Source: Candidatus Woesearchaeota archaeon
GTDB lineage: Archaea > Nanobdellota > Nanobdellia > Woesearchaeales > UBA11576
Assembly: GCA_003695435.1 (NCBI GenBank)
Contig: RFJL01000039.1
Span: 1 to 44,521 of the forward strand
DNA length: 44,521 nt
Reading direction: 5' to 3'
Below the pieces are notes generated by a model. The model ran no database searches. It had not been told where the DNA came from and worked only from the letters and a program-made list of their open reading frames with translations. Each line of letters opens with the position of its first letter. Positions within the stretch are counted from its first letter, which is position 1. Made by a program: the position numbers and the translations under genes. Below, one piece after another: positions 19,515 through 44,029 of the stretch.

Positions 19515-22355
19515 CTACAAAAGAGGTTTCAAAAACTTTGCAGTATGACTCTTCTTTACTTTGATAATGTCTTCAGGCGTTCCCTGTGCAACAATTTCTC
19601 CTCCACCTGTTCCGCCTTCCGGGCCAAGATCTATGATGTAATCACAGCACTTTACCACATCCAAATTATGTTCAATGACGTAGGCAGTGTTTCCCTTTTC
19701 AACAAGCCTATTAAGAACTGCTAAAAGCTTACGAGTATCTTCAAAGTGAAGGCCTGTTGTAGGCTCATCAAGAAGATACACCGTATTTCCTCGTTTATAT
19801 TTTGCAAGTTCTCTTGTAAGTTTTATACGCTGACTCTCCCCTCCAGAAAGCGTTGTTGCGCTCTGTCCCAATTTAATGTAGCCAAGACCCACATCAAACA
19901 ATGTTTCGATCTTTCTTCTCATAGAAGGGTGGTTTTCAAAAAAGGGAAGGGCCTCTTCTACCGTCATGTCCAAAACATCTGCGATGTTCTTTCCCTTATA
20001 CGTTACTTCAAGTGTTTCTTTATTATACCGTTTGCCCTTGCAGTCCTCACACTCAACATAGACGTCAGGCAAGAAATTCATCTCAATCTTGATAAGTCCA
20101 TCACCAGCACAGGTCTCACACCTGCCACCAGGAACATTAAAAGAAAACCTCCCCGGTTTATACCCTCTTTTCTTTGCTTCCTTGGTTTCAGAAAACAATT
20201 TTCTAATATCATCAAAAAGCTTCGTGTACGTTGCAGGATTAGAACGCGGCGTTTTACCAATAGGTTCTTGATCAATGACAATAACGTTTTGTATTGTTTG
20301 AGGCACTTTGAGTTTTTTGTGCTTACCAATTTTCGACTCTCTTGCACCAAAATATTTTTTCATTGCGGGAATGAGTGTTTGATTCATCAGCGTTGATTTT
20401 CCAGAACCTGAAACGCCGGTAATACCACAAAGAACGCCTGTGGGAAAGCGAACATCAATATTTTTAAGATTGTTTTCTGCGCAGCCTTTAAGTTCAATAA
20501 AGTCAAGAGGTTTTCTACGCGTCAGCGGAACTTCAATCTTCTGCCTCCCAGAAAGATACGCACCAGTAAGAGACTCTTTATTCTTCATGATTTGTTTTGG
20601 AGTTCCCTGAGCAACAATGTGGCCTCCGTGAACACCTGCGCCAGGACCAATATCTATGATGTGATCAGCAGATTTCATGGTGTCTTCATCATGCTCAACG
20701 ACGATCAAAGTATTTCCAAGATCTCGCAACCTATGCAACGTATCAATGAGTTTCGCATTATCTCGTTGATGCAATCCAATACTTGGCTCATCAAGAATGT
20801 ACAAAACACCCATCAAGTTAGAGCCAATCTGTGTTGCGAGTCTGATACGTTGAGCTTCCCCACCAGAAAGCGTCCTTGCAGACCTTGAAAGAGTAAGATA
20901 TGATAGTCCCACGTTATTAAGAAAGCCCAACCTGTCAGTAATTTCCTTTAACACTTGTTTTGCAATAAACCTCTCTTTTTCAGAGAGTTTTAAGTTCTTG
21001 AAAAAGTCCAAAGAATCCTTAATGTTCATATCCGTCACATCAATAATGGACTTTCCATTAATCTTAACCGCGAGAATTTCATCCCGTAATCGTTTCCCTT
21101 TACATGTTTTACAGGGTTTTGTTGTCATAAGCTGTTCAAATTTCTCCCTGCGATAATTAGAATCCGTATCTCTCCACAAACGCATGGTCTGAGGGATAAC
21201 TCCTTCCCAACCATTTTCCATATTCATAGAAGCACCATTACTCCACTTCGCTTTAATGGGCTTTGACGTACCATACAACAACACCTCTCTTTGCTTTTTA
21301 GTAAGCTCTCGTATAGGTGTGAATACCGTAAAGCCAAACTGTTTTCCCACTGCTTGAATCTGCTGACCCCTCCAAGAAAGATCCATCTTACCATAACAGG
21401 CAAGAGCGCCATCCATAACACTCAACGAATCATCAGGAATGAGCAAATCCTCATCAATAATCATATGCTCGCCAATGCCGTTACACGTAGGACAAGCACC
21501 AAAAGGCGAATTAAAAGAAAACATCTTCGGCTCAAGTTCTTTGAACACTACTTCGGGATGTTTAGGACAAGCACCAAAGGTGGAATAAATGTGCTCAGCG
21601 TTTTGACGCTCAATTTCTTTAAGCTTTGAGAAATCTTTTTTCGCATCAACAACCTTAACTGTGCCCTTTCCCTTGTGCACTGCTTGCTCCACAGCATCAC
21701 TTATCCTAAGACGATTATCTTCAGAGATAACGATGCGATCAATAACTGCTTCAACCCAATGTTTTTCGTACCGTTCGAGCTTTGGTTTAAACTCATCAAG
21801 ACGATACACCACACCATCAACGCGCACTCGCACATAACCTTCTTTTTTCAAATCCTCAAAGACTTTTTCATGAGTTCCTTTTTTTCCGTCAAGAATTGGT
21901 GCGAGGATAAGGACTTCCTTGCCCGTATCAGAGAGGATAAGATTCACAATGTTTTCTGCAGATTGCGGTTTAATTGCAGAACCGCACTTAGGACAATGCG
22001 CAGTACCAATACGTGCAAAAAGTAGTCTAAAATAATCATAGATCTCCGTAACCGTTCCAACCGTTGATCGCGGATTCTTACTCGTCGTCTTTTGCTCAAT
22101 AGAAATTGCAGGACTAAGACCCTCAATAGAATCAATATCTGGTTTGCTCATCAATCCCAAGAACTGTCTTGCATACGCACTGAGTGATTCAACATACCTT
22201 CTCTGACCCTCAGCATAGATCGTATCAAACGCCAAGGTAGATTTTCCACTACCTGAAAGACCTGTAATAACAACTAGCTTATTTCGAGGAATGGTTACTG
22301 TGATGTTTTTAAGATTGTGTTCCCTTGCACCACGCACTACTAAATTCTTCTGCAT
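19515..22355 (-). CDS. uvrA: Excinuclease ABC subunit A
   Basis: 946 aa with two ABC modules ([48 protein letters not shown]) and zinc-finger Cys pairs. Confidence 0.95.
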
Positions 22356-22461
22356 AGTCTAAAAAAACGAAAAAAGGTTTAAGAAAGTTGTGATTAGTGA
22401 GAACTACACGTTGCAGTCACATCAAACATACAACTATTTTTTCTAAACTCCTTACAATATC

Positions 22462-24381
22462 CTAAACCTCTTTCTTGAGCCTCTCCAAGGTATCTCGTAT
22501 CTCAATTGCCTTCTCAAAATCTAATTCATCAGCAGCGCGTCTCATCTGCGCTTCAAGATCTGCAATTTTTTTCACAATATCATCATAGGCCATGTGCTTG
22601 ACACCTTTGATCTCACGTCCCTTCTGCGCAACTTTCTTACGAATTGTAGTTGGTGTTATGCCATGTTTCTTGTTGAACGCTATTTGCGCCCTGCGACGTG
22701 CATGTGTTTTTGAAATTGCAGCTTCCATTGACTTTGTTATGGTATCTGCGTACATAATGACGTGGCCGTTTTCATTACGCGCAGCTCTTCCAATCGTTTG
22801 AATAAGTGAGGTCTCATTACGCAAGTATCCTTCTTTATCCGCGTCAAGAATAGCAACCAATGACACTTCCGGAAGGTCCAGTCCTTCACGCAACAGATTA
22901 ATTCCTACAAGGACGTCAAACTCACCTGCACGCAACTGTCTGATCAGCTCAATCCTATCAAGGCTATCAATATCTGAGTGCATATAACGAACGGAAATAT
23001 CTTGTTGGGAGAGGTAATTCGTTAAATCTTCTGCCATGCGTTTTGTGAGTGTTGTTATCAACACACGCTCATCTTGATCTACTCTCTTCTTAATTTCTTT
23101 AATCAAATCAGGAATTTGGTTCTTCGTAGGACGAACCTCTACTTGAGGATCAAGAAGTCCTGTGGGCCGAATAATAAGCTCAACAACTTGGCCTGAATGT
23201 TCTAGTTCATACGGACCAGGAGTTGCTGAGACAAACAACACCCGACGAAAATACTTTTCAAACTCCTCAAACTTAAGCGGACGGTTATCAAGAGCAGAAG
23301 GGAGCCTAAACCCAAAATCAACAAGGTTTTTCTTACGTGAGTAATCTCCTTTGTACATGCCATGTGCTTGAGGTATTGTTTGGTGTGATTCGTCAATGAT
23401 GAGCAAGAAATCCTCCGGAAAATAATCAAGAAGCGTAAACGGAGGCTCACCTGGTTTGCGCGATTCAAAGTGGCGAGAATAATTCTCAATACCCGAACAA
23501 TACCCCATCTCCTCAATCATCTCAAGATCATAGTTCGTTCTTTTCTCCAAACGCTGCCGTTCAAGTTCAGGAAGCTCTGGCAATCTTTTGTGAAGTTCAG
23601 CTCTGATACTCTCAATGGCCTTTTTTTGTTTTTCTTCAACCACGACGAATTGCTTTGCAGGAAATATCTTAATAGCATCAAGATGTGTGATGACATCACC
23701 TGTTACGTGATCAACTTCTTGCAAGCGTTCAATCTCATCACCAAAGAGTTCAATACGAATAATCTCTTCATCGTAAGCGGGAATAACCTCAATAACATCT
23801 CCGCGTACCCTAAACTTTCCAGGTTCAAGTGCGTCACGCGTACGCTCATACTGCATCTCCACAAGATGTGTAATCAGATCATCACGCTTAATAGCATCAA
23901 GCTTCTTGAGTTGCAACGAGAGTTGAGCAAAATCCTGCGGATCCGTAAGACCATAAATACAGGAAATAGATGCGACCACAATAACGTCATCACGCGCAAG
24001 CAAAGACGCAGTTGCCTTAAGGCGCATTTTCTCAATCTGCTCATTTACTGTTGATTCTTTTTCAATATAGGTATCAGATGAAGGAAGATATGATTCTGGC
24101 TGATAATAATCATAGTACGAAATGAAATACTCCACCTTGTTTTCTGGAAATAATTCTTTGAGCTCTTGGTAGAGTTGAGCTGCAAGTGTTTTATTATGTG
24201 CTAAAACTAGTGTAGGGCGCTGAACTTTTTCAATGACATTTGCCATAACAAATGTCTTTCCCGAACCCGTAATACCTAGAAGGGTTTGCTTAGGATATTT
24301 CTTAAAACCTTCAACAACTTTCTTGATTGCTTCTGGCTGGCCTCCTGCGGGCTTGTATTCAGATCTAAGATGGAATTTCAC
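22462..24381 (-). CDS. uvrB: Excinuclease ABC subunit B
   Basis: Motifs [12 protein letters not shown], helicase motif QTIGRAARN, and a C-terminal UVR domain ([13 protein letters not shown]). GTG start about 27 nt downstream of GTTTAAATAC (24403-24412). Confidence 0.95.
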
Positions 24382-25881: not shown

Positions 25882-26073
25882 CTATGCAGTATCTGTGCGA
25901 AGAGCAATCAATTCTGTTACGAGTGCTGTTCCCACTAACTCCTTTTTAGTAACCAGACTCCTCTTCGGCTTTGCTCGTCTCTTATATATCTTAGTAAGAA
26001 AAAATACTACTTTGTTGCTATGTACATAGCATTTGGCAAAAATAAGCAAAGATGTAAGCACTGATAAGTGCAT
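25882..26073 (-). CDS. Candidate 63-aa ORF, in the same frame as 24937-25791 and separated from it by one TAG
   Basis: The ATG at 26073 lies about 30 nt from the shared TATA-like box 26100-26106. The composition is not clearly protein-like. Confidence 0.3.
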   Translation of the reverse strand: MHLSVLTSLLIFAKCYVHSNKVVFFLTKIYKRRAKPKRSLVTKKELVGTALVTELIALRTDTA

Positions 26074-26099
26074 ATGCGCATTCTGAGAAAATACAAGTC

Positions 26100-26106
26100 T
26101 TTAAAA
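26100..26106. promoter_or_regulatory. TATA-like TTTAAAA positioned for both msrB (+) and the 26073 (-) ORF
   Basis: The centre lies about 28 nt from ATG 26131 and about 30 nt from ATG 26073. Confidence 0.4.
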
Positions 26107-26130
26107 CGTCCGCTCCTTTTTCAATCATGT

Positions 26131-26520
26131 ATGAGTACACAGCACACCGAAGAAGAATTCAAAAAGAAACTCACCAAAGAACAATACGCTGTTCTGAGAG
26201 AAAAAGGTACCGAGCCACCAGGCACAAGTCCGCTTCTTCACAATAAAGACAAAGGAGATTACAAGTGTGCTGCTTGCGGACAAACACTCTTCAAGTCCGA
26301 TGCAAAATTTGATTCAGGGACTGGCTGGCCCAGTTTTGATCAAGCAATCCCTGGAGCAGTTGAGTACAAAGAGGATCATACGTTTTTCATGAAACGAACA
26401 GAAGTTGTCTGCTCCGCATGCGGATCGCACTTAGGACATGTCTTTGATGACGGACCCAAAGAGACCACGGGAAAACGATACTGCATAAATGGATGCGCCT
26501 TAGCCTTCAAGAAGAAGTGA
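26131..26520 (+). CDS. msrB: Peptide-methionine (R)-S-oxide reductase
   Basis: Two CxxC zinc pairs (CAACGQ, CSACGS), GTGWPSF, HLGHVF and the catalytic RYCINGCAL. ATG 26131 is preferred to the upstream GTG of the track ORF. Confidence 0.9.
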   Translation: MSTQHTEEEFKKKLTKEQYAVLREKGTEPPGTSPLLHNKDKGDYKCAACGQTLFKSDAKFDSGTGWPSFDQAIPGAVEYKEDHTFFMKRTEVVCSACGSHLGHVFDDGPKETTGKRYCINGCALAFKKK

Positions 26521-29201: not shown

Positions 29202-29395
29202 AAGTAAAATTCTTACAGGCGATGAGTATCATTGTTCTTGCCTTCTTCGCCATCTTTCTTCTTAGCTTTGTTCTTGCAAACAAAGGAATAAAAATATTTG
29301 ACCTGGGATTTCCTGGCGTTGTTGAGAATTATATCGTCATCATCTTCTGCGTGGTATCACTTGTCAAGGCGTTCATTGAAATTTATGAAGCGTAA
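29198..29395 (+). CDS. Small two-TM membrane protein (65 aa)
   Basis: ATGA coupling, AGGAGGAG upstream, two hydrophobic helices. The 3-prime end overlaps the convergent regulator gene by 39 nt. Confidence 0.4.
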   Translation: MKVKFLQAMSIIVLAFFAIFLLSFVLANKGIKIFDLGFPGVVENYIVIIFCVVSLVKAFIEIYEA

Positions 29396-30256
29396 ACTGA
29401 CCCTTGCATTTCTTCCATATTTTTCACGATCAATGACTTTTTTATACTCCAAATTGGACAGCACCGCAGAAACTTTGGACTTTGACCAGCCCAATTCCTT
29501 AACGAGATCTTTTTGCATGACGGCATCCTTTTTTTTCTGCAAAACTTGCACCACAACTTTCTCATCAGGACTTAAAAGGTGAAGTGGAATTGATGAGATT
29601 TGTGCAGCGTAACTCTTTTTAGGTGATGAAAAAAGAACCCCTAGGATAAATCCTAACACTCCAAAAAATATCATGAGCGTCCATGCCTGCCATTCCTCAA
29701 ACTCACTAAAGAATTCGCCTATGTTTTTTTCTTGTGCTTCAGCGGATGCGAAGGTAATCTCGTAGATTGCTGGAAGCTTAGGGCTATGATCACTCCATTT
29801 CACGATAATGTGCGATCCATCAGTATCAATCCCTGAAGGGAGAGGAACAATCGCAGGTGTATCTGACTTTTGCACGACGGCTCCTTGAGGCAGTTTGACA
29901 TCATACTCAAACATCAAAGGTGTTACGGGAATTGAGACTGTCCTTGTGAACTTATGCACGTCGCCTTGTTCTGTTACTACGTTGGGAAGGGTGTAAGAGA
30001 ATTCAATTAGACACGATTCACATTCCAATGAGAAGTTGAGAACATCATTTTCAAAGGTGTGTGCAAGATCGCTTGTAACATCTTTTGCTCCCCGGGGGAG
30101 GTTGAGTGAGAAATGGTCTTGCGTGTTATTCGTGAGCACGATGTGTACACTCTCAAGAGCATCATGCTCGGTAAGGGTATCTGCAAGGGTTACTTTTTCC
30201 ACTTGTGCAGAAAGCACTGAGGGTAAGAGTAAGATTAAGATAAGGAGGTATTTCAT
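29357..30256 (-). CDS. Membrane-anchored winged-HTH regulator (signal peptide, about 190-aa outside domain, one TM, cytoplasmic MarR/ArsR-like wHTH; COG2512-like layout)
   Basis: MKYLLILILLLPSVLSAQ; TM segment WTLMIFFGVLGFILGVLF; C-terminal LSPDEKVVVQVLQKKKDAVMQKDLVKELGWSKSKVSAVLSNLEYKKVIDREKYGR. Confidence 0.7.
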   Translation of the reverse strand: MKYLLILILLLPSVLSAQVEKVTLADTLTEHDALESVHIVLTNNTQDHFSLNLPRGAKDVTSDLAHTFENDVLNFSLECESCLIEFSYTLPNVVTEQGDVHKFTRTVSIPVTPLMFEYDVKLPQGAVVQKSDTPAIVPLPSGIDTDGSHIIVKWSDHSPKLPAIYEITFASAEAQEKNIGEFFSEFEEWQAWTLMIFFGVLGFILGVLFSSPKKSYAAQISSIPLHLLSPDEKVVVQVLQKKKDAVMQKDLVKELGWSKSKVSAVLSNLEYKKVIDREKYGRNARVSLRFINFNERLDK

Positions 30257-30266
30257 GACTTTCTAA

Positions 30267-30329
30267 ATTGTTCAGAACTATTTAAATATGGTGGTTGAAA
30301 ATAAACGTTTTCTTTTATTGTTCTGAACT
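30267..30329. promoter_or_regulatory. Two copies of ATTGTTCnGAACT, each with a GTTCnGAAC palindrome (30270-30278, 30320-30328), flanking TATA-like TATTTAAATA (30279-30288)
   Basis: Read directly. Site 1 lies between the TATA box and the leaderless start of the wHTH gene (30256). Site 2 lies about 50 nt upstream of the TATA-like box of the redox operon (30372-30379). Confidence 0.5.
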
Positions 30330-30404
30330 CTTAAACTATTGTATTGTCGCTTCTCAGAGCATTTCGAGTTCTTTTAAAGCATTTGGTTTGTATGGTTTAC
30401 ACAG

Positions 30405-30662
30405 ATGTATTATATACTATTTATTGGTGATTGTCCACATAAATGGTTCGCGTATCCTTGCGACATTCCTCTTCATACTTGCAAGTTCTGCAAGATCAGA
30501 GAAGGGGATTTGTGCGGGAGCTTCCCACACGAACATCCTAAGACTTGCAAAGAATCTAAGAGCTGTGGGAGGAAGAACACTATGCATAAGAGTCAAAATA
30601 AGAAGTATTCGCGAGGAATACTATCAGTTGACTTAAGGAGGCGCTATGGCGTATATTATTGA
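30405..30662 (+). CDS. Candidate Cys/His-rich small protein (85 aa; 7 Cys, 5 His)
   Basis: The ATG lies about 30 nt downstream of TTTTAAAG (30372-30379), which fits the leaderless rule. The 3-prime end overlaps the ferredoxin start by 17 nt. No family recognised, and the region could instead be a 5-prime leader. Confidence 0.35.
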   Translation: MYYILFIGDCPHKWFAYPCDIPLHTCKFCKIREGDLCGSFPHEHPKTCKESKSCGRKNTMHKSQNKKYSRGILSVDLRRRYGVYY

Positions 30663-30879
30663 ATACAAACAAGAAGATTGCATCGGAGCAGGAGAATGCG
30701 AAGCCCTCTCAAAGGACTTCTGGAAACTTAACAATAAAGGAAAGGCAGAGCTTAAAGGGGCTGTGCGTAATCCCTCAACAGGAAAATATGAGCTTCTCAT
30801 AAGTGATGAGGAATACGAACGCCAGCAACAAGTTGCAGGAAGCTGTCCAGTTGGGTGTATTTGCATTAAGAAGAAATGA
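30646..30879 (+). CDS. Single-cluster ferredoxin with CxxAxxC...CP ([3Fe-4S]-type) signature
   Basis: CIGAGECEA near the N-terminus and SCPVGCI near the C-terminus. AAGGAGG lies 4 nt upstream of the ATG. Confidence 0.75.
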   Translation: MAYIIEYKQEDCIGAGECEALSKDFWKLNNKGKAELKGAVRNPSTGKYELLISDEEYERQQQVAGSCPVGCICIKKK

Positions 30880-31523
30880 TTCCCGCAATACTGCACTCCA
30901 TGGAGGATGTAGCACAAGGTGTGCGCAATATACACCTCAAACTCAAAGAGCCTCTTAATTACAAGGCAGGGCAGTATGTTATGCTCGCATTTGAGGATGC
31001 CCTTGAGCAAAAACGCGCGTTTTCCATTCTTAACACTCAAGGAGATCTACTCACTCTGGGAATACAAGAACATAAAGACTTTACCAAAAGACTTTTCTCT
31101 TCTACAGCTGGAGAACGTATCGCAGTTTTTGGACCTTATGGGAGGTTTACCTTACGCTCTCCTCATAAAAACAATATTTTCATTGCAGGGGGAATAGGTA
31201 TTACACCTCTTCTTAGCATGTTGAGAGAGCTCCCTGAGCACGCGAATGCGCATCTATTCTACTGTGCAAAGTCACCTTCACACATGGCATATCTAAAAGA
31301 GGTACGCGCACTTCCTTTTGACGTAAGACTTTACTTTACACGAGTTGAAAGTTCTCTTGGGAAACATTCGCACATTACCCTGGAGGATATCAAGACGATC
31401 CCTCATTGGAGCAGTAGTGATTATTATATTTGCGGACCAAACGCCCTGATTGACACGTTTAGATCGGACCTCATCGCGGCAGGAGTCAAAGAAGATCACA
31501 TATACAGCGAGGACTTCAGATAA
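30876..31523 (+). CDS. FNR-like FAD/NAD(P)H oxidoreductase module
   Basis: RAFS (RxYS-type FAD motif) after GQYVMLAF, and the NAD(P) motif IAGGIGITPLLSML. The start overlaps the ferredoxin stop (ATGA). Confidence 0.8.
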   Translation: MIPAILHSMEDVAQGVRNIHLKLKEPLNYKAGQYVMLAFEDALEQKRAFSILNTQGDLLTLGIQEHKDFTKRLFSSTAGERIAVFGPYGRFTLRSPHKNNIFIAGGIGITPLLSMLRELPEHANAHLFYCAKSPSHMAYLKEVRALPFDVRLYFTRVESSLGKHSHITLEDIKTIPHWSSSDYYICGPNALIDTFRSDLIAAGVKEDHIYSEDFR

Positions 31524-32323
31524 TGTATGAGCGTAGTTATCCTCTTATGGGAGATAAGATCACCTTCACAATCTATGGAATTGAAGAAGTGATTGCAGAA
31601 CTGCTATGTGCTGACGCTTATGACTACGCCCTGAAACTTGAGAACATCTTCAATCTGTTTGATATGACCAGTGAGATTAACACTCTTAATGCTAAGCGGG
31701 ACATTAAAGTTTCACAACACCTTAACAAAGTTATCAAAAAAGCACTGGTCTATTGTGAAAAGACCAAAGGAAGGTATGACATCAGTAAAGGAAAAGCATT
31801 TCTCGCGCGTAAAAACAAACAATCTTTACCACGACTTTCCTGTACCTACAAGGACATTTACGTTAAAAAAGATAGAGTCGCACTTACGCATCCGGATGTT
31901 GTAATTGATCTCTCCAGCATTGCTAAAGGATATATTGTTGATGAACTCACCGCGTTTTTTCAATCGCACGGTGTAGAAGAGATTTTCATAGATGCAAGAG
32001 GAGATATGCGCATCGCAGGAGGTGAAGAAGTGGTTGATATACAGCACCCCCGAAAAAAAGGTGCCATTACAACTATAACTCTTAGGAATGAGGCAATTGC
32101 AACATCAGGAGATTATTTGCAATATGACCTTGACTATGAACACTCTCACGTACTTGGCAATGAACTTATTAGTGTAAGTGTTATTGCTGATGATCTGTGT
32201 ACCGCAGATGTTCTTGCAACCTGCTTGATGCTACTCAAACCACAAGAAGCTCAAGATTTCGCACGTAGAGAGGGGGTAAGAGCAATTTTACTTACTAAAG
32301 ATCTTCAAGAGGTGCGAGCATGA
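31523..32323 (+). CDS. apbE: FAD:protein FMN transferase, without signal peptide or lipobox
   Basis: Motifs PLMGDKITFTIYG, SSIAKGYIVD and AIATSGDYLQY. The start overlaps the previous stop (TAATG). There is no hydrophobic N-terminus. Confidence 0.85.
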   Translation: MYERSYPLMGDKITFTIYGIEEVIAELLCADAYDYALKLENIFNLFDMTSEINTLNAKRDIKVSQHLNKVIKKALVYCEKTKGRYDISKGKAFLARKNKQSLPRLSCTYKDIYVKKDRVALTHPDVVIDLSSIAKGYIVDELTAFFQSHGVEEIFIDARGDMRIAGGEEVVDIQHPRKKGAITTITLRNEAIATSGDYLQYDLDYEHSHVLGNELISVSVIADDLCTADVLATCLMLLKPQEAQDFARREGVRAILLTKDLQEVRA

Positions 32324-33201
32324 AATCTTCACATCTTCTAATTCTTGGCAGTATTGTTGCTATACTCTATATTGTCCTGGCATCATTTATTACCACAACT
32401 CCACTTATCTGGATGCTCACACGCATCTTTGGACTGGTAAGTTTTTTCTTTCTTTTCGCAACCGTCTTCCTCGGAGAACTCCGACTCCTACGAAAAGTTA
32501 AAGCAGATCTTGCCATCTTCAAATATCACGTACCTTTTGCAATTGCAAGTTTCTATCTTAGTCTACTTCACGGAATATCTGCAGTAGCAGATAACTACAA
32601 ATGGGGGAAGGGCCTTCACATATCAGATTATTTAGGATTTAATTTTTCGGATAAATGGCTTGCACTTCTAAGTCTCGGAGTTTTGGCGTTTTATCTCCTT
32701 ATCCTCATTTCAATTACTTCTAGAAAACGAGTGATTCAATTTATTGGTTATAAGCGGTGGAAAAAAATTCACTACCTAAGCTACCCCCTCTTCATCATCG
32801 CGTTCATTCATAGTGTTGGTCTCGGAACAGATCTTAAGGTATCTGCGCTGCACACACCCATCTCATATATTTTCTGGATGTGTTTGTGGGTAATTCTCTC
32901 ACTACTTCTTGCACGTATCCTTAACACAGCAGGTATATTTGAGACACAAGGAGAAGTGAATGCACTTATCATGATCTCCTTGCTGGTAATTCTAGGTGGT
33001 GCAGTTATCGGATCCTTGTTCATCAAGGCAGAATCAAAGATTTCTTCTCAGCAACAAATTGCAGATACGCTTTCACAGGAATACTCGTTTCTGCAAAAAC
33101 AATACCAGGCAGCGCAGGCACAACACGCACAGCTTCTTGATGAGTTGAGCGCACTTCAAGCTCAAGAAGAGCAGTTACGAGGTGAGCTTAAGAATGGGTA
33201 A
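32320..33201 (+). CDS. Ferric-reductase-type (NOX/FRE/MsrQ superfamily) bis-haem membrane domain with C-terminal coiled coil
   Basis: About 7 predicted TM helices. His-x13-His (YHVPFAIASFYLSLLHG) and His-x12-His (IHYLSYPLFIIAFIHS) fall in the third and fifth helices. GAGGTG SD and ATGA coupling. Confidence 0.65.
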   Translation: MKSSHLLILGSIVAILYIVLASFITTTPLIWMLTRIFGLVSFFFLFATVFLGELRLLRKVKADLAIFKYHVPFAIASFYLSLLHGISAVADNYKWGKGLHISDYLGFNFSDKWLALLSLGVLAFYLLILISITSRKRVIQFIGYKRWKKIHYLSYPLFIIAFIHSVGLGTDLKVSALHTPISYIFWMCLWVILSLLLARILNTAGIFETQGEVNALIMISLLVILGGAVIGSLFIKAESKISSQQQIADTLSQEYSFLQKQYQAAQAQHAQLLDELSALQAQEEQLRGELKNG

Positions 33202-33577
33202 GGCTACGAAGATCTTCCTAGGGGTTGTTACTTTTGCAATTATCCTACTGTATAGCATAGCGGCATTGGGTATAGTTGACCTTTATGATAGGCTTTCCCT
33301 GATCGATCGGGACGTCACCATTACTGCAGCGAGAAAAGCAAATTTACAAGCATCATTTGAACACCTTAAGGCACAGAACCTTGCTCTTGATAAACAAATA
33401 GCAAATCAGATCACAACGGTGAAACAGCTTCTTGATCAAGTAGAGAAAGAACAAGAACGCGCAGCTCTTCTGGAAGAACAGGCGCGATTGCAAGAACAGC
33501 AAAGACGTGCACAAGAAGCGTTACTTGCAGTACAGCAACCAGCACCTAAACCTAGAAGAGTTTCACGAGCATCTTAA
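33194..33577 (+). CDS. Single-TM coiled-coil protein
   Basis: ATG 33194 has GAGGTGA 8 nt upstream and overlaps the previous stop (ATGGGTAA). One TM (IFLGVVTFAIILLYSIAALGI), then a Q/E/L-rich heptad region. Confidence 0.5.
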   Translation: MGKATKIFLGVVTFAIILLYSIAALGIVDLYDRLSLIDRDVTITAARKANLQASFEHLKAQNLALDKQIANQITTVKQLLDQVEKEQERAALLEEQARLQEQQRRAQEALLAVQQPAPKPRRVSRAS

Positions 33578-34342
33578 TGTTCTTTTCGCAATTGCTGAGA
33601 AGAGTTCTTTTGCATCTCCCTTTTTTAGTAAGGTGAGCCGAACAAATCTTGCAGCTTTATCATGCACACCATTTCTTGCAGGCTCAGGCATATCCTTAAA
33701 GTTGCTTGCAAGACCAGCGATGTTAAACTCTTTAATCTTTTTCACCCAAGCAGCTTCAAACGCGTACGCCTTAGCTTCTTCATCAACGGGGTCATCTAAG
33801 GGAGGGGTGAGTACGTGACCAAGCTCATGCCCCAGTGTCTCGAGCACAATGTCAAGCTCGCCTTCACGCACAAAAATCCGCGACCTCTGATACGTTGCAT
33901 GACCATTACGTGCAAAGCCAAGAATGCCTGGGTGAAAGTTTTCCTTGAGATGTTTTTTCATCGCTTCATAACTTAAGATGTGAATATCAATATCGCAAGG
34001 GAATTCTTTGTGCATAAGATGATCCCAGGTTTCAAGCAAATATTCCTTCACTTCTTCTGCTTTGCCGATGAATCGTGTCGGCGCTCTGTTCGGTTTCAAG
34101 AATGTGGTTGGTTGATCAATGTGCTGAATGCAAGTTGGTTCTTCTTGTTCATTTCCTTCGTAAAGAGTGGTTGGCGAGGCGTAGTGGGAAGGAGATTCAT
34201 AACTTGGCATTGATCTTACGTGTTCAACAAAAGAAGGGGAGTATTCGAGAGGTCGCTCAACGCCTGTCGCAGAATACATAATGTTTGAAGCATAGCTTGT
34301 GCGGAAAGGTGCCTGATATAAGGGCTGTCGCGAATACATCAT
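33563..34342 (-). CDS. Putative zinc metallopeptidase (HExxH; SprT/ImmA-like) with Tyr/Ser/Pro-rich N-terminal region
   Basis: LGHELGHVLT lies in a context resembling minimal zincins. The first ATG pair is at 34342/34339, while the track ORF starts at a TTG at 34387. Confidence 0.5.
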   Translation of the reverse strand: MMYSRQPLYQAPFRTSYASNIMYSATGVERPLEYSPSFVEHVRSMPSYESPSHYASPTTLYEGNEQEEPTCIQHIDQPTTFLKPNRAPTRFIGKAEEVKEYLLETWDHLMHKEFPCDIDIHILSYEAMKKHLKENFHPGILGFARNGHATYQRSRIFVREGELDIVLETLGHELGHVLTPPLDDPVDEEAKAYAFEAAWVKKIKEFNIAGLASNFKDMPEPARNGVHDKAARFVRLTLLKKGDAKELFSAIAKRTLRCS

Positions 34343-34479
34343 ATGAGAGGTATAAAGACAGAGGGAAATAAGAAGATTGTGTGACAATCACATCAGAACT
34401 ACTGTCTCCTTGCGCTATAGATGTATCCAAAAGAAAGGTTAAAGAAAAAAGGAGAAGAAATAATTTAACCGTTCAAGGT

Positions 34480-38831: not shown

Positions 38832-41456
38832 ATGAGAAAAGAGGTCATTATACTTATCACATGCATTCTTGCGCTTTCACTCTTTTCAGCAGTTCACAGC
38901 GCAACGGTGAACTTCTCAACAATTTCTCTTATGGAAACAACTGCAAGTGATGCAAATCTTACCATTAACAATTATGGCTCACAAGATCCCATCACCAAGG
39001 TTGAACTTGCTCTCAACGGATTTACTCTCAACTCAGTAACTAATTACACAGATTGGATAGAGACGCAAACTAACACTTCTGCCATGTGGGAGAACGGGAC
39101 GATTGCAACTAATGTGCTCCTTGCTCTTTTTGAGATGAACATTGCAGCTCCCCAAGTAACTTCAAACACCACAGCACAGCTTAGCGTTATTACAACAGAC
39201 AGTCAAGGAAGCACACAAACACATCTCTTTAACATTACTATTATCAACGATGACTCCGCACCTCTTCTTAGCGAAGAAGATCCGCAAAACAACGCGTACT
39301 TCAAGGAAGGTATAAGTTACCTTGTTGGTGTTAATGCAACAGATCCCGAAACAGGGATTGATTACGTCTCCTTCACGCATCAACGCTGTTCTGGTAACAC
39401 ATCAAGTCAAATCTCTCTTCTAGGTGGGCCTCGCTTCACGCAAACGGTTGACTTTTCAGGATATGTCAACGGAGATCAAGTGTGTTTTACGTACTTAGCA
39501 GCAAACAATGGCGGAGAAGAAATAACTCTTAACGGCAGTCTTTTCATTGATGGCATTGCGCCAAATGTTACTCTAGACGCTCCAGCAGAAGGTGCAATTG
39601 TAAATGCTCAGCAACAATTCCTCTTCACCGCAACAGACAACCTCGCACCAACACTTACTTGCGCAGTACTCATTGACAACACTCAGACAATCACACTTAA
39701 CGTTACTTCTGGCGTGCAGGCAGCAATCTCTGCGCAAAACGTAACAGAGGGAGCACATACCTGGACGGTGCGCTGTGAAGATCTTGCAGGACACACAACT
39801 GCTGCACCTGCGCAAAACTACTTCCTCGACAAAACCCCTCCCAACGTCACTATCAACCCGCAAAACGCAAGTATCATCGCACCCTCAACGCAAATAACTC
39901 TCCTCACAACTGATAATTACGAAGTTAACTACACGCAGTTTGCCTATGCGAATACTACGATCAACACTACTGGCAATCACACCATCAATGCAAGCATCTT
40001 TACTGATGGCCCTCACACTATTACCGCATATACGCAAGACGCTGTTGGTAACAACGCAACCTTTGTCTTTACACTCATCGTCGATAGCACTGCACCTGTG
40101 ATTACGAGTATTGGACCAAATACGTCTGATGTCTCTGTCAATTTCACTATCAACGTCTCAGACACGTGGGACTCAACACTTGAGTGTACTGTAAGCATCT
40201 CTGATGGTAGCACTGTTTCAGGAAAACTTACCTCAGGAGTTGAAGGAATTCTTCAACATACCTTGCCTGTCGGCGTCTACAACTACACCGTTACTTGTTC
40301 AGATGACGCACAAAACAGTATTACTTCACCTCAGCAAACACTCACCATCATCGACACATCAGGTCCAACCATCACCTTTAACCAGGACACACAAATTGTT
40401 CGAGGAGAGGATCTTCTCCTCAACGCAACTATCACGGACATCTCGGGTATTTCCAACGTGCTTGCAAATGTAACGTATCCTAACGGTAGTGTTGAGTTGC
40501 TCAACCTAATGGGGGCTGGTGATGAGTACACAGCAAGCATAACAACAGATGCAAACACACCAGAAGGAGACTACGTCTTTACCATTTACGCTGAAGATCC
40601 CTTTGCAAATACTAATACGGCATCTTCAACAGTGCAGGTAACCTATGACGTTATCATCACTTTGAGTGCAAACCCTGCTACCATAACCCTGGGAGAATCA
40701 ACGACTCTACGGGGCACAGTTACTTATGATAACGGAACCAATTACCCCTCGGGAATTGTTGAGATCACCACACCTGAAGGAACAGATACTCTCACTCTTA
40801 CAAACGCTTCCTACTCTTTTGTCTACACGCCCCTTACCACAGGTACAAAATCGGTAAGTGCATCATTTACTGCTTTGAATAATATCACAGCACAAGAAAA
40901 CACAGCAGTAATTGTTAATGGAGTCTCTTCATCGGGAGGAGATGACAAAAGCTCTTCAGGAGGAAGAAGCAAAGGAGGCTGTAATCAAAAATGGACCTGT
41001 GACTCTTGGAGTGTTTGTAGTGGAGGCACGCAACAAAGAACGTGTACCAACGTTTGTGATAACGGAGGTAGCAGGGTGGAAACAAGAAGTTGCTCAGTTG
41101 AAGAAGAACAGCTACAAGTTACGCCTTCTTCGTCAGCTCGTCAAAACAACATCATTACCATTTGCATTCGTCCAGGAACTGATCAGCAAAAAGAGCTTAA
41201 CATTCCTGTAAGAGAATGGAAAGCCTACGCATCTAAAGGCGCAAAACAAGGAGAATGCCCAGACATCTCACCATCTGAAGACGCATCATCAGCAATAGGG
41301 GAAGCAGCAGGTTTCTTGCAGGCATTAAACCTTGATGCTACTCGCTTCCTAGGCATTGTTCTTATTACTCTTGCACTTCTCTTAGGACTATTCCTCTACA
41401 CAAGGAAATCTTCTGATGATGATTTTTGGGAAGATTACTTTGAGAAGCGAAGGTAA
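38832..41456 (+). CDS. Large cell-surface protein: signal peptide, multiple Ig-like modules, Cys/Trp-rich TSP1-like module, C-terminal TM anchor
   Basis: Signal ILITCILALSLFSAVHSA. Module boundaries DGIAPNVT, DKTPPNVT, DSTAPVIT and DTSGPTIT. Dozens of NxS/T sequons. CNQKWTCDSWSVCSGGTQQRTCTNVC, and the anchor FLGIVLITLALLLGLFLY. Confidence 0.8.
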   Translation: MRKEVIILITCILALSLFSAVHSATVNFSTISLMETTASDANLTINNYGSQDPITKVELALNGFTLNSVTNYTDWIETQTNTSAMWENGTIATNVLLALFEMNIAAPQVTSNTTAQLSVITTDSQGSTQTHLFNITIINDDSAPLLSEEDPQNNAYFKEGISYLVGVNATDPETGIDYVSFTHQRCSGNTSSQISLLGGPRFTQTVDFSGYVNGDQVCFTYLAANNGGEEITLNGSLFIDGIAPNVTLDAPAEGAIVNAQQQFLFTATDNLAPTLTCAVLIDNTQTITLNVTSGVQAAISAQNVTEGAHTWTVRCEDLAGHTTAAPAQNYFLDKTPPNVTINPQNASIIAPSTQITLLTTDNYEVNYTQFAYANTTINTTGNHTINASIFTDGPHTITAYTQDAVGNNATFVFTLIVDSTAPVITSIGPNTSDVSVNFTINVSDTWDSTLECTVSISDGSTVSGKLTSGVEGILQHTLPVGVYNYTVTCSDDAQNSITSPQQTLTIIDTSGPTITFNQDTQIVRGEDLLLNATITDISGISNVLANVTYPNGSVELLNLMGAGDEYTASITTDANTPEGDYVFTIYAEDPFANTNTASSTVQVTYDVIITLSANPATITLGESTTLRGTVTYDNGTNYPSGIVEITTPEGTDTLTLTNASYSFVYTPLTTGTKSVSASFTALNNITAQENTAVIVNGVSSSGGDDKSSSGGRSKGGCNQKWTCDSWSVCSGGTQQRTCTNVCDNGGSRVETRSCSVEEEQLQVTPSSSARQNNIITICIRPGTDQQKELNIPVREWKAYASKGAKQGECPDISPSEDASSAIGEAAGFLQALNLDATRFLGIVLITLALLLGLFLYTRKSSDDDFWEDYFEKRR

Positions 41457-43429: not shown

Positions 43430-44029
43430 TTATCTAGAAGAATCTGCTTGTCGTTCAATCTCGTTTTTCTTAGAAATAGCGACTGATTGGTTAGACAATT
43501 TGTAAGCGTTAACAATCTCGTCTGCAAGAGCAACTTCAATTGCCTTCTTAGAATCAAAAGACTTCGTTGTAGCAGCAGTTACAAGTTGACGAAGAGCAAA
43601 ATCCACGCGTCGAGAAGGACTCATCTCAACTGCTTTTGGATAGCGAGCACCACCATATTCAATTGCGATAACTTCTTCACGAGGAGCAGCGTTTTCAATA
43701 GCCCCAACAACAACTGCAATAGGATTTTCTTTTGTACGCTCTTCAATAATTTCAAGCGCTCTTTGCATGGTGTTGTACACTAATTGAGCTTTTCCTGTGT
43801 TATGTCCTGATGAACGAACATGTTTTTTACCTGTGTGACCTGAGACTTGCAGGCGATTCATCATACGCTCAATGATGAATGTTTTTGACTTGTGGAATCG
43901 AGTCTTTACATTCTTACCTCCTGTTCGAGGAACGATGCGAGGTTCAAGATTGATGTATTTTTTAAGGCCTGGATCTGCGACGGTAATGCCTTGAGTTGAC
44001 CACTTATTGAATGCTAGAACTTCACTCAT
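43430..44029 (-). CDS. rps7: 30S ribosomal protein uS7 (archaeal type)
   Basis: 199 aa with the archaeal N-terminal extension and conserved blocks [32 protein letters not shown] and [10 protein letters not shown]. The start overlaps the uS12 stop (ATGA). Confidence 0.95.

Follow-up and report, generated by a model that had tools for sequence, protein, structure and literature searches.

Gene organization of the locus

The cluster lies within the window, i.e. the whole 44,521-nucleotide stretch analysed here, and comprises the genes for a ferredoxin, an FNR-type module, an ApbE-family enzyme, a ferric-reductase-domain (FRD) membrane protein and a tether protein, next to a divergent gene (Table 1). 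The host, Ca. Woesearchaeota, is a small symbiotic archaeon of the DPANN group.

Table 1. Features of the cluster, numbered from the first nucleotide of the window
Feature	Position	Strand	Profile match or remark
Divergent gene, probable membrane-bound regulator	29357..30256	-	PF24034 (DUF7343) 6.9e-14, residues 230-288
Intergenic region and 5' leader	30257..30645	+	TATA-like elements, 85-aa Cys/His ORF
Ferredoxin (fdx), 77 aa	30646..30879	+	Fer4_15 8.3e-8, Fer4_13 6.7e-6
FNR-type NAD(P)H:flavin module, 215 aa	30876..31523	+	NAD_binding_1 8e-10, FAD_binding_6 1.4e-4
ApbE-family FAD:protein FMN transferase, 266 aa	31523..32323	+	PF02424 1.3e-41
FRD membrane protein, 293 aa	32320..33201	+	FRD superfamily at family level
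Tether (TM and coiled-coil protein), 127 aa	33194..33577	+	Overlaps the FRD gene
Tether C-terminal tip, S-R-A-S-COOH	33563..33574	+	Proposed FMN site, the last Ser

The operon is real, and five of the six genes listed in the original prediction hold up. The gene overlaps were found as claimed (ATGA at 30876 and 32320, TAATG at 31521-31525, and ATGGGTAA at 33194-33201), as were the SD-like sites AAGGAGG before 30646, GAGGTG before 32320 and GAGGTGA before 33194. The proposed comparison of gene neighbourhoods revealed synteny in about 40 DPANN-type loci. Among related loci, ApbE, the FRD protein and the tether form an invariant core, in which the apbE and FRD genes always adjoin each other, and FNR, fdx and a gene termed 'up' are variable. 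In all DPANN-type loci with sequence downstream of the FRD gene, that gene and the tether gene overlap or directly adjoin. In Actinobacteria, apbE is adjoined by a fused counterpart, FRD-FAD_binding_6-NAD_binding_1-Fer2.

The sixth listed component, the 85-aa Cys/His ORF (30405-30662), is probably not a gene. Its codon-usage score was -0.19 per codon, which is non-coding-like, compared to +0.17 to +0.31 for each of the other cluster genes, and neither a counterpart in the related loci L001-L072 nor a called gene for the ORF in the public protein collection was found. Where the window has its intergenic region, relatives carry the secreted Asp/His-rich 'up' gene, and a tblastn search with their 'up' proteins gave no match in the window. 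The RNA of 30400-30650 exhibited a folding z of -3.16 and no Rfam match.

The TATA-like box TTTTAAAG at 30372-30379 exists, but its assumed role as the operon promoter is not assignable from sequence; a better TATA-like element, TATTTAAATAT, is located at 30279-30289, closer to the divergent gene. The product of the divergent gene begins with a signal peptide; its ectodomain of ~170 aa is linked by a single TM helix to a winged-helix domain (DUF7343) in the cytoplasm. A homologue occupies the same divergent position in 18 related loci. This membrane-bound protein probably controls the operon.

The membrane protein and the putative electron entry modules

As predicted, the His pairs H70-x13-H84 and H151-x12-H164 reside in the third and fifth predicted helices of the FRD protein (AF2 helices 65-90 and 144-167), and all four haem-ligand His residues, which have the NOX spacing, are invariant in an alignment of 23 homologues. 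TM1-6 constitute the core with two predicted bis-His haem sites, H70/H151 on the inner and H84/H164 on the outer side, followed by an extra TM7 and a C-terminal helix of ~55 aa that is predicted to lie outside; in the AF2 model (pLDDT 89.3), one continuous helix spans residues 210-291. Loops 2-3 and 4-5 were placed inside on the basis of the positive-inside rule, since they are rich in K and R (means of 4.0 and 4.4 per sequence, respectively), and the actinobacterial FRD-FNR-Fer2 fusions give the same orientation. The outer face is highly conserved (D91, W95, G96, L105, G106, F109, W113, and L168-G-T-D171).

In the Pfam profile check, Fer4_15, NAD_binding_1, FAD_binding_6 and ApbE were matched as anticipated, whereas the membrane protein on its own yielded no Ferric_reduct match at E <= 0.1. 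PF01794 (Ferric_reduct) matches 21 of the 23 FRD family members, the family profile matched STEAP4 at 4.6e-5, and the top fold matches were STEAP1, STEAP2 and the NOX5 TM domain, with the STEAP metalloreductases outscoring NOX in both profile and fold searches. By sequence, the membrane protein thus belongs to the FRD superfamily at the family level only.

For the ferredoxin, the predicted CxxAxxC...CP motif is present, and the three conserved Cys residues (C12, C18 and C67) correspond to a single cluster. It would be of the 3Fe-4S type, because Ala replaces the Asp ligand of Pyrococcus furiosus ferredoxin, its best solved relative (1e-4). Most DPANN-type loci contain the fdx gene, among them several without FNR, and the ferredoxin is likely the direct electron donor for the membrane haems.

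For the FNR module, the RAFS and GGIGITP motifs are present, and its gene is separate from that of the membrane protein, in support of the predicted split NOX/FRE-type conduit. In the PDB, it is best matched by SpNOX, both the DH domain (8qq5/8qq1) and the full-length protein (8qq7), at 7.5e-19 over residues 14-210; the identities of these entries were confirmed (PMC11031084). Weak Pfam matches to the NOX-type FAD_binding_8 and NAD_binding_6 were also seen. As judged from these alignments, FNR is homologous to the NOX dehydrogenase domain. It is dispensable in many relatives, its gene being missing from the cluster in eight related loci. Together, the FNR-SpNOX match, the family-level FRD membership and the synteny support a modular NOX/FRE-type transmembrane conduit.

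The tether tip as a candidate ApbE substrate

The protein first listed as a 'coiled-coil anchor' has a short basic N-terminus (MGKATK) and a single TM helix, followed by a coiled coil and, ahead of the C-terminus, a Gln/Pro-rich linker; no family is detectable by sequence. An N-in/C-out orientation is predicted, because the charge of the N-flank is about +2 and that of the C-flank about 0 to -2. All 38 distinct tethers end in [T/S]-x-A-S-COOH (TRAS in 29, TSAS in 5, and TGAS, TQAS, TAAS and, in the window, SRAS in one each), despite an identity of only 20-35% over the rest of the proteins; of a subset of 18 tethers, 15 have Lys or Arg at position -5. The fixed positions of the tip coincide with those conserved in the ApbE motif [S/T]-G-A-[S/T]. 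These features suggest that the tether is likely the ApbE substrate, and we propose that its T-x-A-S tip, a new part of the system, carries covalent FMN as the exit cofactor.

Related clusters provide further support for a flavin at the tip. The tethers of locus L021 end in IVTGAS and KVTSAS, and a second tether of L022 contains both RVTGAS and YTRAS. C-terminal motifs that match or resemble the ApbE motif were observed in related clusters of Actinobacteria, Mollicutes, Firmicutes and Chloroflexi: the Pontimonas tethers, encoded 5' of apbE, end in VDAHTGGS and VDGNSGGS, and those of Carbobacillus and Anaerolineae in RTRLS and RTRSSR. An Acholeplasmataceae locus encodes, just 5' of an FRD gene, a 50-aa anchored peptide ending in DSTSGASR. 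Another protein of this locus has a signal peptide, a His/Asp tail and, besides DALAGAT, four motifs that fit D-x-x-[ST]-G-A-[ST] exactly. In addition, Pfam detected no FMN_bind, DUF2271 or DUF3570 domain in the cluster. ApbE is reported to accept tags of 7 residues, with protein termini as the best location (PMC12052999), and flavinylation on an unstructured C-terminal extension was demonstrated by experiment for FMN_red proteins (PMC11334425).

Conversely, the window tip SRAS has Arg at the canonical Gly position and no Asp at -6, and in K. pneumoniae fumarate reductase a Gly-to-Ala change in the motif halves flavinylation (PMC12052999). Some actinobacterial tips (CWTPNHHKTKKC) and that of one Saccharibacteria locus (CVSTPSKPC) are unlike the motif altogether, and the Acholeplasmataceae locus with its perfect motifs has no apbE within the 12 kb searched (~6 kb on each side). 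We found no description of flavin attachment sites of this type, at the final residue of a long tether on the cell surface.

The ApbE match covers model positions 1-265 of 266. Compared to E. coli ApbE (4xgw), the catalytic Ser (TSG), His (SHV) and Asp (TAD) positions are kept, with the triad spacing given in PMC12052999, which argues for the flavin tip. Neither a signal peptide nor a lipobox was found, and no upstream extension of the ORF is possible, so that the window ApbE is predicted to be cytoplasmic. All of the cluster-linked ApbEs lack a signal peptide and a hydrophobic N-terminus, which conflicts with the predicted extracellular location of the tip. Given these ApbEs without export signals, we purely infer that the disordered C-terminal tag would receive its FMN while still in the cytoplasm, and that the tail would be translocated afterwards. 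We know of no precedent for the export of a pre-flavinylated tail.

Known systems, alternative explanations and the proposed route

The original prediction regarded the gene combination as undescribed, which does not hold. Meheust et al. (2021) described 'MsrQ-like' flavinylation clusters of PF01794 and apbE, often with a fused PF00175 NAD-binding domain (PMC8238504), and E. coli MsrQ and Fre are a published split FRD and FNR pair, as cited in PMC11031084. In the MsrQ-like clusters (PMC8238504, PMC11334425), as here, a PF01794 two-haem protein adjoins apbE and a NAD-binding FNR module is the cytosolic entry; they are proposed to pass electrons through the membrane to an extracytosolic flavin, with iron reduction suggested for some. 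However, they are bacterial, mainly from Actinobacteria, whereas the present cluster is from a DPANN archaeon, and their NAD domain is usually fused, whereas FNR and ferredoxin have genes of their own here. In the published clusters the substrate of ApbE is an FMN_bind domain, which is folded; the candidate here is the four-residue tip at the C-terminus of a coiled-coil tether. Those clusters were also picked for a signal peptide on ApbE or its substrate, which the window ApbE lacks.

The other known systems share individual parts. The DH domain of SpNOX (PDB 8qq7; DH domain 8qq5) aligns with the whole FNR, and SpNOX has the same His-x13-His on TM3 and His-x12-His on TM5, but it is one polypeptide without an Fe-S relay, ApbE or tether; the window FRD differs by TM7 and the extracellular helix and has no detectable sequence similarity to the SpNOX TM domain. 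The STEAPs, the best profile and fold matches for the membrane domain, reduce extracellular Fe(III) and Cu(II), but are eukaryotic, with one haem, a membrane-spanning FAD, a fused F420-type NADPH domain and no covalent flavin. In Listeria, as proposed here, a covalently flavinylated surface-anchored protein (PplA) is the last carrier to Fe(III) and other extracellular acceptors, and an ApbE-family enzyme (FmnB) installs the FMN; however, the FMN_bind domains of PplA are folded, FmnB is an exported lipoprotein served by its own flavin export route, and quinone and EetAB, instead of an FRD, take the electrons across the membrane. The engineered Flavin-tag (Tong et al., 2021, as reviewed in PMC12052999) and the natural FMN_red proteins (PMC11334425) resemble the tip in that a short terminal linear motif suffices for ApbE and the flavinylated serine is on an unstructured C-terminal extension, respectively. 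The former is synthetic and the latter adjoins a folded flavin pocket of the same protein, whereas the proposed tag is the very last residue of a long anchored protein, with the pocket, if any, on another protein.

The missing export signals could instead mean that ApbE acts wholly on the entry side, placing covalent FMN on the cytoplasmic face of the FRD protein, on FNR or on the ferredoxin, as a covalently bound equivalent of the FMN that E. coli MsrQ is reported to contain, and that the tip has an unrelated role, e.g. docking to the FRD outer loops or the envelope. The constant adjacency of apbE and the FRD gene, the cytosolic ApbEs with cytosolic substrates known from K. pneumoniae (PMC12052999), and the designation of MsrQ as a flavocytochrome reduced by Fre in a title cited in PMC11031084 are consistent with this. 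However, the FRD cytoplasmic loops contain no flavinylation-like motif or lineage-specific conserved Ser/Thr; T133-S134, the one pair conserved there, also occurs in STEAP4 and is therefore not confined to FRDs linked to ApbE. The four invariant His residues indicate that the inner site holds haem and not a flavin, the ferredoxin lacks the motif, many clusters keep ApbE without FNR, and the T-x-A-S tips and canonical motifs of other lineages would be left unexplained. We thus consider an entry-side flavin unlikely.

A true NADPH oxidase, in which the outer haem or the flavin tip would generate superoxide or H2O2 from O2, to scavenge oxygen or to signal, and metals would not be substrates, appears quite unlikely. 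Reduced flavins do react with O2, SpNOX is the closest solved relative of FNR, and the FRD has the NOX His spacing and the NOX5 TM domain among its top fold matches. Nevertheless, the higher STEAP scores and the acidic/His metal-binding-type proteins and MopE-type repeats added by relatives argue against it, and the host lineage is generally held to be anaerobic and fermentative. Moreover, the acceptors of prokaryotic FRDs are varied, and the physiological acceptor of SpNOX itself is not established (PMC11031084).

The original prediction also offered MsrQ-like repair, in which the FRD protein would feed an extracytoplasmic methionine sulfoxide reductase; this is disfavoured as highly improbable. 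A weak NCBIfam MsrQ match (2e-3) reached 17.6 bits against a cutoff of 130 bits, and some public annotations label homologues MsrQ/YedZ. An MsrB gene lies 4 kb off (26068-26520), but its product lacks a signal peptide and the gene is not syntenic; in L026, the Saccharibacteria cluster is followed by MsrA and MsrB. The periplasmic partner of MsrQ is MsrP, and neither an MsrP nor a molybdopterin gene was found in the window or related loci. MsrQ was reported with one haem and FMN, whereas the window FRD family has four invariant His ligands. E. coli MsrQ and Fre (Juillan-Binard 2017; Caux 2021, cited in PMC11031084) are, as here, a separate FRD and FNR-family reductase with a NOX-like path. Their genes, however, do not share an operon, and an ApbE is not known to take part.

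We therefore favour, with a rough probability of 0.58, a modular NOX/FRE-type conduit with FMN at the last serine of the tether as the putative exit cofactor. From homology, NAD(P)H would reduce the FNR module, and FNR, or other cellular reductases, would reduce the small 3Fe/4Fe ferredoxin, which would dock on the FRD protein at its basic cytoplasmic loops and feed the inner and then the outer haem. Comparative sequence analysis suggests that the acceptor of the outer haem may be the FMN on the T/S-x-A-S-COOH tip, which the co-encoded ApbE would attach by a phosphoester bond. The coiled coil of the tether may pair with the extracellular C-terminal helix of the FRD protein, keeping the two side by side, and the flexible linker would allow the flavin tip to dock on the FRD outer face, where aromatic and acidic residues are conserved.

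A metal acceptor is supported by the 'up' proteins of relatives, which carry a signal peptide, Asp/His-rich stretches and DxDxDG repeats, by one related FRD fused to Cu-binding_MopE repeats, and by poly-Asp/Glu/His ends on some FRDs and tethers; for the window the link is indirect, because it has no acidic 'up' gene. Overall, the operon appears to carry electrons from the cell interior over the membrane via the two-haem protein, and the flavin tip would then reach more distant acceptors, most likely a metal ion such as Fe(III), since relatives add secreted Asp/His-rich proteins.

The operon and its ferric-reductase-type membrane protein

The cluster comprises genes for a ferredoxin (fdx), a separate NAD(P)H/flavin module (FNR, 215 aa), ApbE, a ferric-reductase-domain membrane protein (FRD, 293 aa), and a 127-aa protein with a transmembrane (TM) helix and a coiled coil, hereafter the tether, whose C-terminal SRAS is its tip. 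The genes are joined by overlaps of ATGA (twice), TAATG (once), and ATGGGTAA (once). The observations behind the original prediction of a split NOX/FRE-type electron conduit were largely correct: its open reading frames (ORFs), overlaps, and Shine-Dalgarno-like (SD) sites were all found in the window sequence. A scan of the larger ORFs (15.8–44 kb of the window) turned up no other respiratory genes, as it had stated. The prediction had also counted as a component an 85-aa Cys/His ORF (30405–30662), which we rejected as probably not a gene. The codon usage of this ORF is −0.19 per codon, versus +0.17 to +0.31 for each other cluster gene, it has no counterpart among loci L001–L072 of relatives bearing related clusters, and it is not among the genes called in the public collection, where the ferredoxin (RME77937.1) and ApbE (RME77939.1) are.

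Features of the operon and of the rest of the window
Feature	Position	Strand	Evidence or content
Ferredoxin (fdx)	30646–30879	+	ORF; Fer4_15 8e-8 (Pfam)
FNR	30876–31523	+	ORF; NAD_binding_1 8e-10, FAD_binding_6 1.4e-4 (Pfam)
ApbE	31523–32323	+	ORF; PF02424 1.3e-41 (Pfam)
FRD membrane protein	32320–33201	+	ORF; family-level PF01794
TM and coiled-coil protein (tether)	33194–33577	+	ORF
Divergent gene	29357–30256	−	Signal peptide, ectodomain, one TM helix, cytoplasmic DUF7343 winged helix
Convergent 274-aa ORF	33563–34387	−	HELGH (HExxH) zinc-protease-like motif
MsrB, cytoplasmic	26068–26520	+	SelR 7.7e-51
UvrC-UvrA-UvrB set	17920–24381	−	
874-aa surface protein	38832–41456	+	Bacterial Ig-like domains
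Ribosomal protein S7 beside 145-aa ORF	43430–44463	−	

The window is a contig of a Candidatus Woesearchaeota MAG, and its membrane protein has the same sequence as NCBI D6774_02910. Searched alone, the protein gave no Pfam match at E ≤ 0.1, PF01794 (Ferric_reduct) included, and its NCBIfam matches, the MamZ C-terminal domain (2e-6) and MsrQ (2e-3), are both below cutoff. Taken literally, this result is one of those that the original prediction had named as refuting it. The evidence at the family level outweighs it: PF01794 was matched by 21 of 23 aligned homologues (38–46% identical to the window protein; best 1.1e-11), and it is present in the precomputed annotation of 31 of 33 homologues at 38–51% identity. 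The family profile also matches STEAP4 at 4.6e-5. The two His pairs, H70/H84 and H151/H164 (13 and 12 residues apart), are invariant in the 23 sequences and lie inside helices 65–90 and 144–167 of the AF2 model (pLDDT 89.3), the third and fifth TM helices, in agreement with the mid-membrane placement that had been proposed. In a Foldseek search of the PDB, the top three matches were STEAP1, STEAP2, and the NOX5 TM domain, with probabilities of 0.97–1.0 and with E-values (0.03–0.15) and TM-scores (0.34–0.49) that are modest because of an extra seventh TM helix and a long helix. The model and its matches indicate that the window protein has the six-helix FRD fold; its placement in the FRD superfamily is supported at the family level only.

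Loops 2–3 and 4–5 carry 4.0 and 4.4 Lys+Arg per sequence, suggesting that they are cytoplasmic, in the NOX orientation. Independent evidence for the same orientation comes from actinobacterial relatives, in which FNR is fused after TM6. In the AF2 model, the seventh TM helix runs directly into a helix of ~55 residues, which must then lie outside the cell. The conserved residues of the outer face are D91, W95, G96, L105, G106, F109, W113, and the LGTD element. In the next-closest FRD subfamily (P0061, P0062, P0068, and P0075), a ~190-aa N-terminal secreted domain of no known family is present and all four proteins retain an H-x-x-x-LGTD element; one 914-aa member carries six Cu-binding_MopE repeats.

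For FNR, the best PDB matches were the DH domain and full-length forms of SpNOX from Streptococcus pneumoniae (8qq5, 8qq1, and 8qq7, identified from PMC11031084), at 7.5e-19 over residues 14–210 of 215, indicating by homology that FNR is a detached NOX dehydrogenase domain. NOX proper is a single polypeptide; here, the FRD and FNR are separate genes with apbE between them. The SpNOX match, the FRD family evidence, and the NOX orientation together support the split-NOX interpretation. Aligned to Pyrococcus furiosus ferredoxin, the window ferredoxin has Ala at the position of the Asp ligand, which leaves three Cys, and the label "3Fe-type" that it had been given is therefore fair. In the fused actinobacterial FRD-FAD_binding_6-NAD_binding_1-Fer2 protein, the parts that the window encodes separately as ferredoxin, FNR, and FRD occur in "assembled" form.

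The signal-less ApbE and the tether tip

The match of the window ApbE to PF02424 covers positions 1–265 of the 266 in the model, and its TSG, SHV, and TAD align with the Ser, His, and Asp of E. coli ApbE. Ser and His are 16 residues apart and His and Asp 28, as in the V. cholerae triad S241/H257/D285 (2025 review, PMC12052999). Eight residues precede the first conserved strand of the protein, and an in-frame stop upstream precludes any extension. An N-terminal lipoprotein or secretion signal is typical of ApbE, albeit not universal, and the window ApbE has none. A hydrophobic N-terminus was also absent from the cluster-linked ApbEs of DPANN, Saccharibacteria, Actinobacteria, Carbobacillus, and Anaerolineae. 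Furthermore, the substrate domains FMN_bind, DUF2271, and DUF3570 were absent from every cluster protein in Pfam searches.

For the tether, a word-based sequence search returned the tether itself only, and pairwise identities are 20–35%. The architecture does not vary: a short basic N-terminus is followed by one TM helix, a coiled coil, and a linker rich in Thr/Pro or Gln that leads to the C-terminus. Conservation resides in position, architecture, and tip. The tips of 38 distinct tethers are TRAS (29), TSAS (5), TGAS, TQAS, TAAS (1 each), and SRAS (1, the window). In the ApbE motif D-x-x-[S/T]-G-A-[S/T], FMN goes on the last residue (PMC12052999). Numbered from that residue, [S/T] at −3, Ala at −1, and [S/T] at 0 are found in 38/38 tethers. 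The window tip lacks the Gly at −2 and the Asp at −6 and has Arg at both; Gly is present at −2 in 1/38 DPANN-type tips, and position −5 is Lys or Arg in 15 of a subset of 18.

Other tethers bridge the window tip and the full motif. Those of locus L021 end in IVTGAS and KVTSAS and hold internal RVTSAS and LITSAS, and the second tether of L022 holds RVTGAS and YTRAS. Pontimonas tethers directly upstream of apbE end in VDAHTGGS and VDGNSGGS, i.e., D-x-x-[ST]-G-G-S with Gly replacing Ala, and a neighbouring secreted protein has VDASSGAS followed by a poly-Asp tail. The full D-x-x-[ST]-G-A-S was found among tethers in the Acholeplasmataceae locus only (L062:4280–6354), where each of two paralogous 210-aa FRD genes follows a gene for a small secreted or anchored Ser/Thr-rich protein. 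The first, a 50-aa anchored peptide encoded 22 bases upstream of the FRD gene, ends in DSTSGASR (one motif); the second, encoded between the FRD genes, has a signal peptide, four exact D-x-x-[ST]-G-A-[ST] motifs, DALAGAT, and a His/Asp tail. A search of the 12-kb locus (~6 kb on each side) detected no apbE. The Carbobacillus and Anaerolineae tethers end in RTRLS and RTRSSR, respectively, and most of the Saccharibacteria FNR-TM-tethers end in C-T-T-x-Q-S-G-V-T-T-C.

In Saccharibacteria (L026:3472–4680, L029:3640–4866, and L033:3418–4653), the FNR polypeptide continues into a single TM helix and a ~150-aa Ser/Thr/Pro-rich tail, which ends with a flavinylation-like SGVT core between two Cys. Nanopelagicales-type Actinobacteria (L039:4482–5030, L046:4569–5045, and L056:4545–5045) encode an anchored low-complexity protein upstream of apbE that ends in a conserved Cys-flanked CWTPNHHK(T/K)KKC, unlike the flavinylation motif; this element may bind metal or form a disulfide loop.

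A tag of as few as seven residues is enough for ApbE, with a protein terminus as the best position (PMC12052999). Together with the motif match of the tip and the bridging lineages, this suggests that the last Ser of the window tether (codon 33572–33574) is the most likely ApbE target.

Sequence features predict that ApbE is inside the cell and the tether tip outside. The latter is based on the positive-inside rule, on the expected pairing of the tether with the extracellular FRD helix, and on the Saccharibacteria fusion protein, whose cytoplasmic FNR is joined to the tether through a single TM helix. An inverted topology, with the tip inside, was ruled out by the loop charges, the actinobacterial FRD-FNR fusion, and this Saccharibacteria FNR-TM-tether fusion. 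The mismatch between ApbE and tip, which is the chief problem for the proposal, is seen in every lineage examined, which argues for a property of the system and not an annotation slip. The simplest reconciliation, which is speculative, is that FMN would be attached in the cytoplasm to an unfolded terminal tag and the tail then translocated. Loading before export would explain why the substrate is a disordered tail and not a folded domain. We know of no precedent for the export of a pre-flavinylated tail.

In the main rival explanation, the target of ApbE lies on the cytoplasmic side and the tip has another role. Three findings count against it. The FRD cytoplasmic loops contain no motif and no lineage-specific Ser/Thr; their sole conserved Ser/Thr pair, T133-S134, is shared with STEAP4 and hence does not mark out ApbE-linked FRDs. 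The four haem ligands are all invariant. ApbE also persists in many clusters that have no FNR, for which reason the phosphate-binding Thr of FNR (FTKRLF) is rejected as the target. On the outer side of the FRD, Thr170 of the invariant LGTD was set aside as a less likely flavinylation site, since it has no motif match and faces outward; LGTD is also conserved in the FRDs of Saccharibacteria, Actinobacteria, Firmicutes, and Chloroflexi. Flavinylation of the tether tip is the reading that we prefer.

Distribution, neighbouring genes, and known systems

Synteny was compared in three homologues found by exact-sequence look-up, 19 DPANN-type loci from species-representative genomes, and ~25 metagenome loci. 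The common order is the divergent DUF7343 gene, a variable secreted acidic gene (hereafter "up"), fdx, FNR, ApbE, FRD, and the small TM and coiled-coil gene, and the cluster genes usually overlap. A search of 1.84 billion proteins gave 30 representative clusters at E ≤ 1e-30, so the family is rare. FNR is absent from the cluster in eight loci (L008, L013, L016, L017, L018, L083, L084, and L085), both fdx and FNR are absent in loci labelled Altiarchaeota or Gracilibacteria, and fdx is kept in several clusters without FNR. ApbE-FRD-tether is retained wherever the locus sequence reaches far enough. By sequence comparison, cognate arrangements extend to bacteria of at least four lineages (Actinobacteria, Mollicutes, Firmicutes, and Chloroflexi). 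More distant FRDs beside apbE come in three further arrangements. Microbacteriaceae, Nanopelagicales, and Pontimonas have tether, ApbE, and the fused FRD-FAD_binding_6-NAD_binding_1-Fer2 protein, the Carbobacillus and Anaerolineae loci pair ApbE with FRD and tether, and Saccharibacteria have FNR-TM-tether, ApbE, and FRD.

Five loci labelled "uncultured Methanosarcinales" (L009, L011, L013, L015, and L016) and one labelled "Gracilibacteria" (L023) all carry the DPANN-type cluster. Since the gene content of these MAGs is like that of the Woesearchaeota loci, the labels or bins may be unreliable. In locus L004 (9741–12843), a [NiFe]-hydrogenase-type set (Fer4_22, NAD_binding_1/DHODB_Fe-S_bind, Oxidored_q6, and NiFeSe_Hases) lies ~3 kb downstream of the cluster and might supply or take up reducing equivalents.

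In relatives, the "up" proteins (L002:3225–3953, L004:3551–4252, L015:3731–4318, and others) have a signal peptide, DxDxDG repeats, runs rich in Asp and His, e.g., EDDHEDDHEDDH, and near the C-terminus a conserved hydrophobic motif (xxLxWLGxx), and they match no family in Pfam. The window has no "up" gene, and tblastn with "up" proteins found no degraded copy in its 390-nt spacer. At this position, upstream of fdx, the forward-strand RNA of 30400–30650 folds at −72.1 kcal/mol (z = −3.16; 0/200 shuffles fold as well). In the MFE structure, the fdx SD (AAGGAGG, 30635–30641) lies in a long-range helix, apparently paired with UCCUU near 30455–30460 as read from the dot-bracket. No riboswitch or other known RNA was matched in Rfam, even at E ≤ 1. 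The folding predictions suggest that this spacer may be a structured regulatory leader.

The divergent DUF7343 gene adjoins the operon in most DPANN-type loci, and its product looks like a one-component transmembrane regulator. The convergent HELGH ORF, which matches no family in Pfam or NCBIfam, shares 15 bases with the 3' end of the tether gene, across the SRAS-tip codons. The window MsrB gene is 4 kb upstream of the operon, and in the Saccharibacteria locus L026 (7757–8659) MsrA-like (GCFWG motif) and MsrB-like ORFs were recognized by eye after the cluster. The occurrence of Msr genes near the cluster in two lineages is probably a coincidence.

An MsrPQ-like function, which the original prediction had offered as MsrQ-like repair, was rejected: the MsrQ score is 17.6 bits versus a cutoff of 130, and there is no MsrP-like gene in the window or related loci. 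The prediction had also held that the gene combination was not known to be described. Meheust et al. (2021) described "MsrQ-like" flavinylation clusters, mainly in Actinobacteria, with iron reduction suggested for some (PMC8238504), and E. coli MsrQ and Fre, as cited in PMC11031084, are a published split FRD and FNR pair; the combination is therefore not undescribed. The 2021 criterion was a PF01794 gene within five genes of apbE (PMC8238504), and the window likewise has a PF01794-family gene by apbE, adjacent and overlapping. In contrast, MsrQ-like systems have a signal-peptide-bearing substrate domain (FMN_bind, DUF2271, or DUF3570), whereas the window cluster has none. Because that survey retained a cluster only where ApbE or a known substrate domain had a signal peptide (PMC8238504), clusters of the window type would have been filtered out. 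In the literature searched, we found no description of a system with a signal-less ApbE and a T-x-A-S-tipped tether, and nothing relevant on flavinylation with DPANN or with disordered substrates. What these comparisons show to be new is the DPANN form of the MsrQ-like flavinylation system, with a signal-less ApbE, no FMN-binding domain, and an invariant T-x-A-S-COOH tether tip.

Proposed electron path and its significance

From the parts, their order, topology, and motif, which come from sequence and comparison, we infer the following path. NAD(P)H would reduce FNR, and FNR or other cellular reductases would reduce the ferredoxin, which is the more constant entry partner, being kept in several clusters without FNR. 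The ferredoxin would reduce the inner haem at the basic cytoplasmic face of the FRD, and the inner haem would pass the electron to the outer haem. The tip FMN would then dock at the conserved outer face of the FRD and take the electron, and the coiled coil (probably paired with the extracellular FRD helix) and flexible linker would let the flavin reach acceptors further out.

Our first choice for the final acceptor would be a metal such as Fe(III). This choice is suggested by the Asp/His-rich stretches and DxDxDG repeats of the relatives' secreted proteins, the fusion of a related FRD to MopE-type metal-binding repeats, the poly-acidic or His tails of several FRDs and tethers, and the STEAP metalloreductases, which are the closest solved membrane domains. 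The window itself lacks an "up" gene, which makes the link to a metal indirect here, and O2 may be the acceptor instead.

The tether may represent a natural type of ApbE substrate that is new, which we call a "flavin on a leash" and to which we assign a probability of about 0.3. According to this tentative reading, the tether would be loaded in the cytoplasm by the signal-less ApbE and its unfolded tail then exported; it would have no flavin-binding fold, carrying instead a terminal T-x-A-S-COOH or D-x-x-[ST]-G-[AG]-S-COOH tag; and its disordered or coiled-coil, N-anchored chain would be long enough to span an S-layer or cell wall.

If this is true, cytoplasmic loading would require neither an extracytosolic ApbE nor FAD export, and it could account for some of the ApbE genes that earlier surveys dropped for want of a signal peptide. 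With a natural C-terminal flavin tag on the tether, the known substrates of ApbE would no longer be confined to folded domains. Profile searches miss both the tether and its tip, and the tether is a hypothetical protein in the deposited record; a usable search rule is a small anchored protein that is encoded beside apbE and an FRD gene and ends in TxAS.

Woesearchaeota and other DPANN archaea are usually regarded as symbionts that live by fermentation and have no electron-transport chains. If the tether reading is true, the FRD haem protein would be provided with an envelope-spanning electron outlet, including in small-genome lineages (DPANN archaea and Mollicutes). A conduit from NAD(P)H or ferredoxin through two haems to the outside would let cells shed reducing equivalents, or reduce and take up metals, and such an outlet bears on how DPANN archaea live with, or off, their hosts.
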